Shown one piece after another: positions 3,172 to 14,131 of a stretch of DNA of 64,000 nt. The notes below the pieces were generated by a model that had not been told where the DNA came from, did not search any database, and was given only the letters and a program-made list of their open reading frames with translations. The position numbers and the translations under genes were made by a program. Within the stretch, counting starts at the first letter, position 1, and the number at the start of each line of letters is the position of its first letter. This stretch comes from Octopus vulgaris (lineage: Eukaryota), in contig OX597830.1 of the NCBI GenBank assembly GCA_951406725.2, positions 67,332,001 through 67,396,000 on the forward strand. Direction: 5' to 3'.

Positions 3172-3240
<69 letters not shown>

Positions 3241-3371
3241 AAAATAGTAAAGAGTGAAAAAACGACAGAAGGCTTAAATGTTAAAAAATATATATATTTG
3301 TGTCAAAATGTCTGGAGAATATTGGAAAAATTTTTTCCTTTCCTTAAAATGACATAATTTTATAATTTTTA

Positions 3372-3411
3372 AAGAAATTACCGGTTTCGCGTGTAGCTTT
3401 TCAAATTTCTT
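3372..3411 (-). ncRNA. Minimal type I hammerhead with U3-A8 core
   Basis: AAGAAAT-TTGAAAA-GC tacac GC-GAAA-CCGG-TA-ATTTCTT: 7-bp stem I and palindromic ACCGGT stem III. Confidence 0.75.
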
Positions 3412-3545
3412 GTGACGTTATGTTTATATTGCATGGAGTTATCGTTGTGTTTATTTTCAGGAGATTTCTAAATAAGGGGAGGTAGTGAGTGATTTCTTCC
3501 GGTGTAAGGGAGATAATCGCTTAAAAAACTTTTTCCTTTCCCTTG

Positions 3546-4475
3546 TTAATTTCTCTGTGTCAGTATGTTCGGATGGTTGAGTCTGGGTTTGTACTTTTCA
3601 ATGAAGAATGTTTCCTTGTTCAGTCTCATTTGTGTTGATGATCCGAAAGCACATTGGTAAAATGGGAAGATTAAAAATTGTGGTAGTAGTTGCTTTGCGC
3701 ATTTCTCAATGTGCTCACTAAAAGGTATCATTCTATATTCTGGGAATGCAATCTGTTGTCGATGCAGTGTGCATCTACGCCTGAGTGATAGTCCCGTGGA
3801 ACCCACGTAGTCTTGGTGGCAGCCCGAGCATTTAATGACATAAATTATGTTTTCAGAGGCACAAGTAAAGTTAGATTTGATCTTGAATTTTTGTCCCTCT
3901 TTAAAGAGGAATTCTGATCCTTCTAGCAGGTTAGGGCATGTTGCACAGTTCGATCTACCACATTTTTTTACTTTTGCATCCGTAATTTCAGAAGACAATT
4001 TTGCCTTTGTGAGAATCTTTTTAAGTGATTTAGGCTGTTTGTAGCTTTTAATGATTTGGTGTATGTTTAGAATTTCCTTTAATTTTGGGTTTTTATGAAG
4101 TATTGGTAAATTCTGGGTGATGATGGTGAAGGCTTCTTTGTTTCTGGGGTTGTATGTAGATATGTAAGGTAGTATTTTCGGGGAAGGTGTGTTGTTGTGT
4201 TGAACTTTTCTTAAAGTTTCTATGTTGATTTCTGTTGCACGTCTGATCCCATCCTATATGAGTTGAGCTGGGTAATGTCTGTCAATTAGGGTGTTTTTGA
4301 GTTCTTGCAGTCTAAAGTTCCTGGTATTTTGTTCTGACATTATTGTGCATATCCTTCTTGCAAGGTTGAAGGGGATGTTTGTTTTAGTGTGTCTTGGGTG
4401 GCATGAATTAAAAAGAAGGTATTGTTTGGCGTCTGTGGCTTTGTAAAAAATGTCTGTTTCTATTTTAAGGTTAAT
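3546..4475 (-). pseudogene. PLE thumb, Zn-linker and GIY-YIG endonuclease region
   Basis: TDIFYKATD..YL.FNSCHP..NIP, CxxxxCxxC, YVIKC..C..YVG. Confidence 0.88.
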
Positions 4476-4478
4476 TTT

Positions 4479-5990
4479 TTAAATTAGTATATCCAAGAAC
4501 GGGAGCTCCTTTTGGTTGTATTCCATTGTGAACTGTATATTTGGGTTTATGCTGTTCAATAGGTTTTTAAATTTTAGGAGTTTATCTATGTTTTCATTCC
4601 AGAGAATGAAACAATCGTCTAGGAATCGTTTCCAATTCTCTTTTATGTATTGAGAGAGGGAGTTTCCAAAGATTGATAGAGATTCCTGGTAAATGATTAT
4701 TTCCATGTATCCCATTGTTAAGTTCGCAATGACTGGTGCTGCCCTTGTACCCATAGCAATTCCGGATTTTTGACGGTAAAATGTATTGTCAAACATGAAG
4801 TGGTTATTGTGTAGGATGAATTCAATTGATTTAGTAATGAATTCCTTACTGATCCTTTTTGGTATTTCTTCCGGAAATTGGTCTAACCAGAACTGTATTG
4901 CCTCCAGTCCATAATTATGAGGTATACTGGTATACAAGTTGACTACATCAAATGAAACCAGGATTGTTTCTTCCTTGGTTTTTTTTGGAAGGTGGTTTAA
5001 CATATCTAAGTCATCTCTGATATGGCTATCGACATGTTTAAGGAAGGGTTTCAGGAGGATGTCCATAAGTAGACTTAGTCTGTGTGTTTCACAGGTTGGG
5101 CCAGCTACAATGGGTCGTAGTTTTAGGTCCCCCGGATTAGGTGTGTGTATGTATGTTTTTGGTGATTTTTTAATGGTTTCATTTATAATTTGACTTTTAT
5201 GAATTTTTGGCAGACCATAGAAAAGGCTAGGTTTGCATTTAAAGTTTGTTAGGAAGTCAATCTCTTTGGTTGTCAGTTCCTTTTCATGGGTTTTAATTAG
5301 TGAAGATAGAGTTTTCATTATTTTTTGTGGGGTGTAGTTGGTAATTTTTTCATAATGTAGGTCGTCATCAAGCAAGGAAATTACAAGATTTCTGTAGTAT
5401 GATGTATCCATTATTACAACTGCATTTCCCTTGTCCGCTTCCTTAATGGTTATATCTTCATCATTTTGGAGTTCTATCAGTTCTTTCCATTGTGTAGTGT
5501 TAAAATTTGGGTTAGCTTTCTGTCTATGTATAGTATGGTAGGGGAAGTTCTCAATGTGGTTACAGAATTCGTCAAGATCTTTATTTCTTCCTCTGTGTGG
5601 GATGTGTTCACTTTTGTTCTTGACTAGTGATTCATCTTCAGTATTGAAACTGTTTGATGCTTCTGCTAGTCTTAATTTTCTGCAAAATTCTGTTATATTA
5701 TCCTTGAGTTCATTTAGGTTTGCTCTGCGTGGAGTTGGTGTAAATTTGAGCCCTTTTGCGAGGATATCAATTTTTATGTTAGAAAGAGGTTTGGTTGAAA
5801 GATTGATTATCTTCGGTTTTTCCTTATTACTAGGTTCCAGCCTGTGTCCTGGTGTCCCTGGTCCCTGGCTAAAAAATGTTGGGTGTAATTTTGTTTGTAT
5901 GAGTTGTCTGTGAGGTTGTGTGGTATTTGGTCGGGGGAGTGGTGGTATTGTTGCCTCCGATCGTTGTGTGTGTGTGGGAATCTATGGTTG
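4479..5990 (-). CDS. PLE reverse transcriptase frame (open from 5990, first AUG only at 5411)
   Basis: Manual translation upstream of the ORF-track start gives [21 protein letters not shown] in frame. Confidence 0.85.
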
Positions 5991-6250
5991 TTATTGCTTG
6001 TGGTGTGTGTAAAATTTCTGTATGGGAAATATTTTTGTTTCGAACTTCTTATATGTGGGATGTTGCTTGACATAGTGTTTCTTTGCGTTTGTCTTGTGTT
6101 TAGTGGGGACCAGTAGTTTTGGTTCATGGGGTAGTAGCAATTTGTGTGTGGTGTATTTCTTATCCTAGTGTCGTATTGTGCTGTATGGTGGTTGGGTCTG
6201 GTATTAGGATGTTGTTGGTTTGTTCTGTTTTTGGTGTAATTTCTTTCATA
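5807..6250 (-). CDS. PLE ORF1 C-terminal part (N/H/T/Q-rich), overlapping the RT frame
   Basis: Stop-free from the (TA)n edge to 5807; contains CAT TTT TTA (HFL). Confidence 0.6.
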
Positions 6251-6958
<708 letters not shown>

Positions 6959-6967
6959 TTTGTTTTG

Positions 6968-8583: not shown

Positions 8584-9118
8584 AGTCAGGTGGTAACAGC
8601 CACTTCCATTAACACGTAAATAATGAGCGGTGTTCCGCAGGGCACTGTTTTGGGACCACTACTGTTCATAATGGCCCTCTCAGACATGCCCTCAGCCACG
8701 CAGAGAGCCACGATCACAAGTTATGCAGATGATACAAAAGTTTCACAGGCAATGCAGAACCCTGAGGACACTAAGGACCAGCAATGTGAGCTGGACGAAA
8801 TACACAAGTGGGCTGAAAAGAATAGCATGCAGTTCAATGCTGAAAAGTTTCAAGCTTTATACTATCAGCATGCAAAACTGAATGCAATACCCATTGAATA
8901 TATTGGACCCGGAGGGATTGCAATCCCAGAGGCACAATGAGTGCTTGACCTGGGTATTCACATGAGTGATGAAGCGACCTTTCATGTACATGTTGCTAAA
9001 CTGGCAATGAAATGTAGACGGCTGGCTGGATGGATTCTTAGAACCTTCAGAACAAGAGAACAAGAAACCATGATGGTCCTCTGGAAGACACTTGTCCTAA
9101 GCCACTTTGGCTATTGCT
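8584..9118 (+). mobile_element. CR1/L2-type LINE family B, internal RT fragment
   Basis: [15 protein letters not shown]; near-identical inverted copy within 16455-16997. Confidence 0.9.
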
Positions 9119-10645: not shown

Positions 10646-11038
10646 GGAATCTGCCGGTATTCCCAACGTGAGAGAACATGTCTACTGAGTGACTGTCCCT
10701 TCACTCATCTTCCAGGGACCCGACGCACAAACAGAAACGGGGCCTCAAGCCAACACACAAACCTGAATAACAATAAAAATAGAAACACACCATGCTGCAG
10801 TAATGCTGGTCCAGTCTTTTCAGGAAGACACAAAAACAACAACAACAAAAGTGGAAACTACAACCCTATCCAACAGTGCAACCACACCTCCAGCCAAAAA
10901 CTGCTCCCTAAGCAGGAAAATTCTTTTTTAGCCATGTTGAACATGGCAAAAGAGATACACAAAAACATTCTAGCCATCACTCAACACCATCCTATGCTAT
11001 TACCCCAGTGCACCAATTCCCCACATTGCTGCCACTAA
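10646..11038 (+). CDS. LINE ORF1 C-terminus with CCCH-type zinc finger
   Basis: Frame 2 is open: GICRYSQRERTCLLSDCPFTHLPGTRR...ENSFLAMLN..., stop at 11036. Confidence 0.7.
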   Translation, partial: GICRYSQRERTCLLSDCPFTHLPGTRRTNRNGASSQHTNLNNNKNRNTPCCSNAGPVFSGRHKNNNNKSGNYNPIQQCNHTSSQKLLPKQENSFLAMLNMAKEIHKNILAITQHHPMLLPQCTNSPHCCH

Positions 11039-14000
11039 CACACACAAAAAGTCCAAGCCCCCTGCAACAGTCAAAACCAGCCACTACACTAACCTCCACA
11101 TTCCTACTCAATGCACAAGGTGTCAGCCCTTCCATCAATGCACAAAAATGGAAGGTCCAATTCATTGAAGACTGGGTTGGTAACCATTCACACCACATCC
11201 CTTTCTTCATTCTCACTGAGACCCACCTTGACAACTCCCACTTGGAAGCCGAAGTGAGAGTGAAGAATTTCACAACCATCCGCGCGGATCGTATCGGCAG
11301 GAGGAAGGGTGGAACTGCCATTTTCCTGCATGATTCATTTACGGCAGATGGAAATAGTATATTCTCCAACGGCTACTGTGAATCAGTCACCGTGCACAAC
11401 AAAGCCAATGATCTGACAGTAATTGGGCTCTATAGGCCGCCCCAAACACCCATACTGTGCTTTAAAGAATGCCTCAACAGCATTAAGTGCTTTATTCAAC
11501 AGTGCCATTCTAGCAACATACTCATGATGGGAGACTTCAATCTACCCTGTGTTGACTGGACTACAAACTGTTTGAAACCAAGCACTCCCGCCTCAACCAC
11601 TGACAAAGAAGCAGCAGAGTCACTTTTCGACTTTACGAATGAGTTTTTCTTGTCCCAACTTGTCCTTGCACCAACAAGACATCAGAACATTTTGGACCTA
11701 GTGTTTAGTAACCACACTAACACTATACATAACGTTACAGTGGAAAAAACCCTTCTTTCAGACCATGACATGGTTCTCTGTAACATGAAATTCCACCAGC
11801 CGAAAGCTAATCCTAGTGACCTTCCTCCAGCCCACCCATTTGACAACATGGATCTCCATAAAGCCAACTGGGATGCAATCAGGAACGAGCTATCAAATGT
11901 TGACTGGTCCTTTACACATACACACATCTCCACCAACCATAAAACATCTTGGCAGATCTTTGTAGACACCGTCACAGACATATGTGCAAAACACTCCCCA
12001 CCAAGACCTGTGAACAAAAAGTGCAGAATCCCCCAAAACAGAAAAACCATTATCAGAAAAATAAAAAGAACAAACAAAAAAATTAACAAACTAAAGTACT
12101 GCCAACAGCAACACACACATTCGACGGCTATCGCACTGCTTGAATCCAAAAAATATAACCTCCAACAATGCATGAAGTCCCTCATCAATAACCAAAGATC
12201 AGCTGAGGAGAAGTGGGCCATTGAAAAAATCAAACTCAACCCCAAAGTGTTCTTTTCATTTGCGAGGAAACGCAGGGTCACTGTCTCCACTGTAGGCCCT
12301 CTAATTGACGAAACTGGCACTCTCCAAGATAATGCCAAATCCATGGCCGAGATACTGCAGAAACAATACTGCTCTGTTTTCAGCAATCCTGATATGGCCG
12401 ATCTGGGCTGTATCAGTGATGTCAACCCCCAACACACTATATCGGACATAACGTTTAGTGCCCCTGATGTCTTAGCGGCGATAAACGAAATAAAACACAA
12501 TTCAGCAGTAGGCCCCGATAGGTTCCCTGCTTGTGTCCTGAAGGTGTGTCGACACCAACTTGCATCTCCCCTTGCTAATCTGTGGAGAAACTCACTGGAT
12601 GCTGGCTATATTCCAAAAACCTTCTGTCCCAGTCTGTTGTCCCAGTTTTCAAAAAGGGAAACAAGTCCCTTGCAGTGAATTACCGTCCGATCTCACTCAC
12701 CTCTCATATCATCAAGGTATTTGAGAGGGTGGTGAGATCTCAAATAACCCAATTTCTGGAAAGCAACAGACGGCTGATCTCCAACCAACATGGGTTCCGT
12801 AATGGAAGGGACTGCCTAACGCAGCTCCTGCATCACTTTGAGGACATTTTGAGAGCTTTGGGAGAGGGCTCCAACACCGATGTCATCTACCTTGATTTCA
12901 GTAAGGCCTTCGACAGGGTCGATCACAAGATCCTATTGAAAAAACTATCCAACATTGGTGTCTCTGGAAAGTTACTGAAATGGATTAAGTGTTTCCTGAC
13001 AGACAGATCTCAACATGTTGTAGTTGAAGGGGTAAAATCAAGCCCAGCCAAAGTCAGTAGTGGCGTTCCGCAAGGCACTGTGCTGGGCCCACTTCTTTTC
13101 ATCATTTACATTAATGACATTAATGACATCATCAAGCACAGCAACATAAAAATCTTTGCAGATGACTCCAAGCTACAGAAGGTCATAAATGAGGCGAGTG
13201 ACCGGACATGCCTTCAGTCAGATCTACTGGCTGTTATCCAATGGGCAGAAAAAAACAATATGCTGCTGAACGAGGATAAATCTGAGTTAATCCACTTTGG
13301 AAAAGAGGATGCCCTGAAACTCCCATACTCCCTTCCTTCAGGTGAAACTCTCGCGGCGTCCAACAACATCAGAGACTTGGGAGTAATTGTGGACAACAAC
13401 GTAAGCTGGGCCACTCATATAAACACCAAAGTTGACATGGCCCGCAGAATGTGTTCCTGGATTCTCAGAACTTTCCAGTCGAGAGATATCCACACCATTA
13501 TCCTTCTCTTCTCCACTTTTGCCCGACCCCACCTTGAATACTGTTGTCCACTGTGGTCTCCCCACACAATACAAGGTATCATAAAAGTCGAAGCACCTCA
13601 AAGGGCAATCACAAAAAAGATAGATGGCATGACAGGCCTCGACTATTGGGGTCGACTAGAAAAGCTAAAACTCTATTCTCTGCAACGTCGTCGTGAGCGC
13701 TACATCATCTGCATGATGTGGAAAATATTCCATCAGCATTGCCCAAATGATGTTGGCATCACCTTTAAGGTACATCCAAGGCTTGGGCCCCGTGCCATCC
13801 GCCCAAAACAAAAATCGCACTCTCATCTCATAACAACAATACGGCACAATTATTTCACCTCAATTGGCCCCGCTCTCTTTAACATTACACCAAAACACAT
13901 TAAAACAGAAACTGACCCTATAGGGTTCAAGAAGTCTTTGGACAGATTCCTTCAAGAAATCCCGGATAAACCCCCTACACCCGGATATGTCTCTGTAAAC

Positions 14001-14042
14001 AATAACTCTCTACTTGAGTGGGCCATAGTGCCCAAATTCTGA
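10924..14042 (+). CDS. LINE ORF2 (APE endonuclease + RT), with one frameshift in an A-run near 12620
   Basis: ORF-track segments 11008-12678 and 12582-14042 join if one A is restored (IPKNLLSQSVVPVFKKG). Confidence 0.88.
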
Positions 14043-14131
14043 CTTGAAAGACTTCACCAGGTGGTGCTATTAAGTTAGACATGGCCTGGGCCAATAATGG
14101 CCGAAACCTATCAAAGTATCAAAGTATCAAT

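Follow-up and report, generated by a model that had tools for sequence, protein, structure and literature searches.

An in-phase slippery heptamer between a separate ORF1 and the reverse transcriptase frame marks a two-ORF clade of endonuclease-bearing, Neptune-type Penelope-like elements

Penelope-like elements (PLEs) that carry an endonuclease (EN+), among them the paraphyletic Neptune group, are described as single-ORF elements in their canonical form (Craig et al. 2021, PMC8557442, in its available text). Two-ORF organisations are associated with Athena and with Coprina, which a legend in the preprint of the same paper presents as organised like Athena, both being endonuclease-less; there a coiled-coil-type ORF1 is reportedly split from the reverse transcriptase (RT) by a frameshift, and the legend to Fig. 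1 of PMC8557442 allows for an ORF1 set apart by a frameshift that comes with a pseudoknot. Frameshifting in PLEs is already in print in these general terms. Beyond that legend, the literature covered, in the portions available, holds no frameshifting ORF1 in EN+ PLEs (Repbase, figure artwork, Arkhipova 2017 (Terminons) and Gladyshev 2007 lie outside this scope), and the accessible parts of PMC3846280, PMC6431247, PMC5408684 and 10.64898/2026.07.22.740005 describe no such ORF1 in EN+ elements. In HIV-1 gag-pol, a structural ORF precedes an enzyme ORF in the -1 frame and the slip takes place on U UUU UUA (PMC5009743, whose available sections leave Penelope unmentioned).

In this work we describe a PLE from the octopus that combines a GIY-YIG endonuclease with a separate ORF1 and this same heptamer. 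Within the 64-kb window (the whole stretch of DNA that was analysed), ORF1 of the element reads CAT TTT TTA GCC on the minus strand, with the heptamer T TTT TTA at 5876-5870 providing ORF1 codons Phe-Leu and the RT lying in the -1 frame. A sequence-only reading of the window had proposed this arrangement, and it holds: a canonical X XXY YYZ heptamer stands in phase at a -1 overlap. Two further elements of that reading were confirmed, namely that ORF1 ends about 60 nt past the heptamer (stop TAA at 5809-5807, 60 nt downstream) and that the RT frame has no ATG until 5411, which lies beyond the motifs IINLS (5810), KGLKF (5756) and ADKG (5438). The RT frame is also open upstream as described; its start lies at 5981, after a TAG at 5984-5982, and the position of 5990 given for it was off by 9 nt.

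The window's copy, all on the minus strand, is 5'-truncated at about 6250 and retains the 3' part of ORF1 (5807..6250), as judged from the list of open reading frames and from intact copies elsewhere, with an N/H/R/T/Q-rich low-complexity tail. The RT-GIY-YIG frame, which would be entered at the slip, spans 3546..5876 and includes RFLDD at 4628. A zinc-finger-like linker, C-x4-C-xx-C, joins RT to endonuclease (3936..3962) in the layout of the Neptune rows in the available Fig. S2 of PMC8557442, and the GIY-YIG core (3699..3848) has an internal CxxC and two downstream His residues (CCHH-type), with a Pfam GIY-YIG match at E 0.007, under the curated cut-off. The 3' UTR or pseudo-LTR (3240..3545) ends in a (TA)n tract. 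Because of the 5' truncation and two premature RT-EN stops, at 4481 and 4256, this copy is inactive. Within this 3' UTR or pseudo-LTR, a descriptor scan placed a candidate minimal hammerhead-like motif at 3372..3411, with a 7-bp stem I, a U3-A8 variant core and a palindromic stem III, and predicted the motif twice in each of L091, L214 and L253; a search of the PLE against Rfam gave no hammerhead match. The U3-A8 core is the variant found in host families, as against a canonical C3-G8 core in the metagenome relatives L253, L256, L258 and L259. Full-length copies have the element's 3' end a second time in front of ORF1, in some of them partly in inverted orientation, and ORF1 therefore lies inside the pseudo-LTR-bounded unit.

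These features allow the element to be placed among described PLEs. Its RT is of PLE type, with N-terminal INLS/GxKF and DKG motifs, and its C-terminal GIY-YIG carries the CCHH motif, PF01541 being assigned to many homologues. The endonuclease position separates it from Naiad and Chlamys, in which GIY-YIG is N-terminal; its presence, together with the dispersal of copies over many contigs, separates it from the endonuclease-less, telomere-associated Athena and Coprina. A CX2-5CxxC linker with a long spacer before GIY-YIG is Neptune-type and unlike Nematis, the Neptune assignment being drawn from this linker layout. In place of the single ORF usual for EN+ PLEs, two overlapping ORFs were found in four intact copies and in six host families. 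There is strong support for reading the element as a bicistronic PLE of Neptune type that bears an endonuclease and a -1 slippery site, as had been suggested from the window alone, and the arrangement extends far wider than one element, to six families and a metagenome clade. Whereas canonical EN+ PLEs have been described as single-ORF (PMC8557442, as available), the present clade has a separate ORF1 of 410-535 aa in -1 overlap with RT, and resembles Athena and Coprina in having a coiled-coil-type ORF1 split from RT at a frameshift.

The 2.8-Gb host genome contains many near-identical copies of the element. A pattern built on the flanks alone found 151, of which 100 were listed and scored by eye: 97 of the 100 have a perfect T6A, 2 a substitution and 1 a T5. 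A homopolymer error, which would have meant that the two frames are really one, is rejected, since 99 of the 100 listed copies keep the length of the run. Phase conservation across copies, which had been proposed as a check, was likewise found, with 53 of 69 anchors (a set that includes lower-scoring copies) in phase and the others showing truncations, point changes or indels; the site was kept in all of the first 30 loci retrieved, which as best matches are a favourable sample. A fused ORF1-RT frame (about 1,205 aa) occurred in none of 150 RT matches, the longest frame reaching 984. From four intact copies the full ORF1, whose recovery had been called for, was obtained as 451 aa from its ATG, followed by 776 aa of RT-EN from the slip; the RT-EN frame of full-length copies has no Met over 155 codons, and in the intact copy L091 the heptamer is the sole T6 run within the 451 codons of ORF1. 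A PLE copy (L127) and a LINE copy (L241) are each 5'-truncated right at the heptamer AG beside (TA)n, for which target microhomology is a sufficient explanation.

Other PLE families of the same host share the signal. A pattern with T6A set at a constant spacing ahead of [VI]INLS gave 311 genomic matches against 7 for a reversed control, and a pattern blind to the T-run gave 936 against 19; of the first 30 loci of the latter, 21 carry a heptamer in phase, located at -69, -78 or -90 nt, while the remaining 9 are decayed copies. A loose variable-gap pattern, at chance level overall (2,709 matches against 2,881 in the control), served for spotting families alone. Across the six host families with a complete ORF1, RT is 43-63% identical and ORF1 25-45%, and the distance from ATG to slip varies from 399 to 510 codons with the heptamer in phase in all six, the ORF1 core being conserved and the low-complexity tail free in length yet fixed in frame. 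One young host family reads T TTT TTT followed by AC.

The signal also extends beyond the octopus. An RT scan of metagenome contigs returned 80 loci, from which we examined the 70 with the RT start in the match and dropped the 10 without. A T6 run lies at most 250 nt upstream of the RT start in 30 of these 70 loci, in slip phase in 29 and out of it in 1 (p 3e-13 assuming independence, which the loci do not fully have). An initial metagenome scan by ORF1 alignment gave no matches; a profile of the ORF1 core matches 22 of the 80 loci, none of them among the long single-ORF loci. We constructed a quick RT tree of 56 rows, comprising the six host families and 50 of the 70 metagenome loci, hand-picked by removing near-duplicates and some short or decayed loci, with a midpoint root for drawing. 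The elements with ORF1 and slip site form one RT clade of 35 rows (SH-aLRT 99 in this quick tree), outside which fall single-ORF relatives with an equal linker. An in-phase heptamer is present in 28 of the 29 metagenome rows of the clade (T6A or T6G in 26, TTTAAAC or CCCTTTT in 2), the member without one being L280. The conserved signal is real, and it defines a two-ORF clade of Neptune-type PLEs. Outside this clade, a separate PLE lineage (L316, L319, L320) has a different ORF1 and an in-phase slippery heptamer, with SGNH-esterase-like motifs recognised by eye at the end of that ORF1, where Pfam gives just NXPE4_C at E 0.05; its sequences suggest that the layout of ORF1 plus slip site may have arisen or been refitted more than once. 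Bivalve gill symbionts are given as the source of several RT homologues, and five PLE RT-GIY-YIG proteins (P0030, P0045, P0061, P0067, P0088) are filed at NCBI as bacterial symbiont proteins; the symbiont-labelled homologues are probably host DNA in metagenome bins.

Taken together, the sequences make it very probable that RT-EN is produced as an ORF1-RT-EN fusion by programmed -1 ribosomal frameshifting on U UUU UUA. We analysed 39 slip sites, chosen for having a heptamer and including two from outside the clade, with T6A in 31, T6G in 6, T7 in 1 and TTTAAAC in 1. No Met precedes INLS in 34 of the 39, an in-frame Met being present there in the other 5, and an RT-frame stop stands directly 5' of the heptamer in 9; these stops and the missing Met together indicate that ribosomes must move into the RT frame on the heptamer or immediately past it. 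Under such a scheme the majority of ribosomes would complete the 451-aa ORF1 while a minority would change frame and produce a fusion protein of about 1,205 aa, and this minority would set a gag/pol-like ratio of ORF1 to fusion. The likeness to HIV-1 lies in the identical heptamer and in the order of the two ORFs, enzyme in -1 (PMC5009743, as available); the PLE differs in being a non-LTR-type, GIY-YIG element, without a stable stem-loop at the usual spacer and with an ORF1 that is not Gag-like by Pfam.

Splicing offers another route to the same enzyme, the T-run then being the polypyrimidine tract of an intron whose removal links the beginning of ORF1 with the RT frame and which is kept in genomic copies. 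The accessible text of PMC3846280 states that PLEs may retain introns, an AG follows the T-run in 29 of the 39 sites, and the window's own family, alone among the families, has a phase-compatible pair of sites: a perfect (9/9) donor at ORF1 nt 168 (phase 0), a CAG in RT phase 0 located 4 nt past the heptamer AG and phase-compatible with this donor, and two database gene models whose first exon is ORF1 residues 1-56. Across the clade, however, the AG is missing from 10 of the 39 sites, one site reads TTTAAAC, and the six host families have no donor in common. A conserved acceptor at TTTTTTAG, which the sequence-only reading had named as a possible refutation, is accordingly not found, leaving one family-specific splice route. 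Nothing in an acceptor, moreover, calls for a run of exactly six T uninterrupted by C or for a fixed ORF1 phase, and the LINE discussed below, from which copying would remove any intron, retains the T6A signal; contigs from four presumed-RNA runs cross the junction unspliced, a weak observation because the runs may be DNA and the donor is covered by one of them, and one that carries no information on expression level. We regard splicing as very unlikely: a -1 slip accounts for phase, composition and position together, which splicing does not do across the clade.

It is also extremely unlikely that RT-EN is translated separately, by reinitiation or by non-AUG or internal initiation as proposed for LINE-1 ORF2, with the T-run incidental. 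Such initiation has a precedent, since AUG-independent initiation of ORF2 is favoured for mammalian LINEs (PMC5009743, as available), and 5 of the 39 sites have an upstream in-frame Met. It leaves unexplained, however, why the heptamer keeps one phase in 29 of 30 loci whose flanks are unalignable; the ORF1 stop is usually inside or just before the conserved start of RT, and a start at the first AUG (5411) would remove 155 residues including conserved motifs. Equally unlikely is slippage of RNA polymerase or RT on the T-run, yielding some fused-frame RNAs on which ribosomes stay in frame. In its favour, the junction of the neighbouring LINE is an indel hotspot, its length differing in 41 of 100 listed copies, 10 of which fuse ORF1 and ORF2; the PLE junction, in contrast, is stable (1 of 100 listed copies with a length change), L264 with TTTAAAC has no long run on which a polymerase could slip, and polymerase slippage is blind to a codon phase that is nevertheless conserved. 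Were the enzyme made from fused RNAs that are then copied in cis, most genomic copies would be expected to carry the fusion, and they do not.

Programmed frameshifting thus being the favoured account, we examined what might stimulate the slip. A hairpin or pseudoknot downstream, for which folding had been recommended, was found neither in the window's PLE nor in the six host families (z -0.9 to +1.6, with no stem-loop or pseudoknot 5-9 nt downstream), and the 39 sites have no conserved fold (mean z -0.34; z below -2 in 4 of 39), under a folding model that scores no pseudoknots and with many downstream stretches almost unpairable. The clade therefore differs from the pseudoknot-coupled frameshift of two-ORF PLEs in the legend of PMC8557442 (as available) in having no conserved fold of pseudoknot strength, and because no stimulatory structure is conserved the efficiency of slipping could be low.

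A different regularity lies in the position of the ORF1 stop. In 24 of 76 protein homologues, whose median identity is 31%, it falls exactly 12 codons from TTT (11 from UUA), and it does so again in 12 of the 39 DNA sites, where the span from slip to INLS ranges over 63-207 nt. Among 37 elements, codon 12 from TTT is a stop codon in 12 and reads TGG in 8. Eukaryotic disomes have a spacing of about 10-11 codons. We speculate that a ribosome terminating at an ORF1 stop 11 codons downstream, about one ribosome length, may stimulate the slip in much of the clade. Stalling of one ribosome at a stop boosts -1 slipping by the next ribosome behind it, at a distance of 8-10 codons, in E. coli reporters (Smith et al. 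2019, PMC6815119, as available); that system shares with the PLE clade a heptamer one ribosome length before a stop and the absence of RNA structure, and differs in being engineered, bacterial and maximal at 9 codons A-site to A-site, as against a natural, eukaryotic case with 11 codons deduced from spacing. Stop position works otherwise in SARS-CoV-2, via refolding of a pseudoknot (PMC8168617, as available). The idea fails for the window's recently active family, which has TGG at codon 12 (5837..5839, minus strand), where many relatives have their ORF1 stop, and its own stop at codon 22, and also for the 7 of 39 sites that stop at codons 3-6; inheritance of an ancestral stop, or constraint from the RT frame, could give an equal peak. 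On these sequence grounds, a large, unannotated EN+ PLE clade whose structure-free -1 frameshift is driven by a ribosome terminating 11 codons downstream is a tentative proposal that we consider rather doubtful. If true, it would be a natural eukaryotic case of collision-driven frameshifting, with enzyme output tied to the ribosome load of ORF1.

These results change the anatomy assumed for EN+ PLEs, in that an entire clade encodes an additional protein family that lacks a Pfam match. The enzyme would be made as a fusion alone, with the consequence that gene callers and repeat libraries truncate RT and miss ORF1, and the two-ORF anatomy is relevant to efforts to set up PLE retrotransposition in vitro, which the available text of PMC8557442 lists as a task still ahead. 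The sites of the clade also provide many naturally occurring -1 slippery heptamers that share no conserved RNA structure, and with them other stimulators of eukaryotic frameshifting become directly testable.

The ORF1 family itself is large, its profile matching 1,154 protein clusters (50% identity) at E 0.001. Pfam returned nothing at cut-off for six ORF1s. The N-terminal 250 residues are predicted to be all-helical (pLDDT 79, pTM 0.57); with this predicted fold Foldseek gave no match at E 0.001, and VIA-align gave generic helical hairpins (best Z 9.5) with no specific match, a lack of structural matches that is no proof of a new fold. FL or FF occurs in the last 45 residues in 76 of 87 listed homologues of at least 330 aa, against 11 of 87 in a control window. 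With its predicted helical N-terminal half and low-complexity basic tail, ORF1 is presumably an RNA-packaging scaffold. A perfect splice donor after ORF1 codon 56 (region of L091:4317) coincides with the break point of the gene models P0003 and P0004, which open with the N-terminus of ORF1 and run on into host genes (PTPRT-like and DGCR6-like); judged from sequence, these chimeras may be either exonisation or an artefact of gene prediction.

The window contains two occurrences of the TTTTTTAGCC decamer where 0.09 would be expected (2 being reached in 0 of 100 shuffles), the second site lying in equal phase at 10924-10933 (+) in the ORF1/ORF2 overlap of an unrelated APE-RT LINE. That LINE is 5'-truncated (10648..14125, plus strand) and comprises the ORF1 end, with CCCH-type fingers and a stop at 11036-11038, and the APE-RT ORF2, whose first ATG is at 11524 and which has a frameshift near 12620. 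The family has an ORF1 of 409 aa, with a Myb/SANT-like start (under cut-off) and the CCCH-type fingers, and an ORF2 of 1,039 aa whose first Met is 200 codons past the slip. Its heptamer T TTT TTA (10924..10930, plus strand) is also in phase in a sister LINE family, at a different distance and continuing GCT or GCG. Both the PLE and the LINE site read TTTTTTAGCCA, and the claim that two unrelated retroelements use an identical 11-nt context stands as far as T6A plus G is concerned; the GCCA is not conserved, GCC directly following the heptamer in 1 of 39 PLE sites and the sister LINE having GCT or GCG, and the 11-nt identity is probably T6A and G plus a chance match. In the LINE only, the stretch 10931..10982 (+) holds a near-perfect palindrome of 17 nt that adjoins the heptamer and, as an alternative fold, a stem-loop that begins after a spacer of 5 nt (z -3.5). 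This stem-loop makes -1 frameshifting plausible in the LINE as well, within a comparison that covers two related families.

The slippery run of the LINE (10918-10947, plus strand; copies L231-L250) is an indel hotspot, with 20 of 100 listed copies lacking 1 nt, 10 lacking 2 nt, 9 lacking 3 nt and 2 showing gains. The 2-nt deletions fuse ORF1 and ORF2 into a frame of 1,468 aa, and deletions recur on both SNP sub-haplotypes. No such hotspot was seen at other A6/C6 runs, at the PLE site (1 of 100) or in the sister LINE without an adjacent palindrome, and it may reflect either RT slippage beside a hairpin or an assembly artefact. Short LINE ORF2 fragments also lie among long (TA)n tracts at 6410-6960 (-) and 8620-9000 (+) of the window, one being a 3' end that terminates in a short tandem tail, the other an RT piece.
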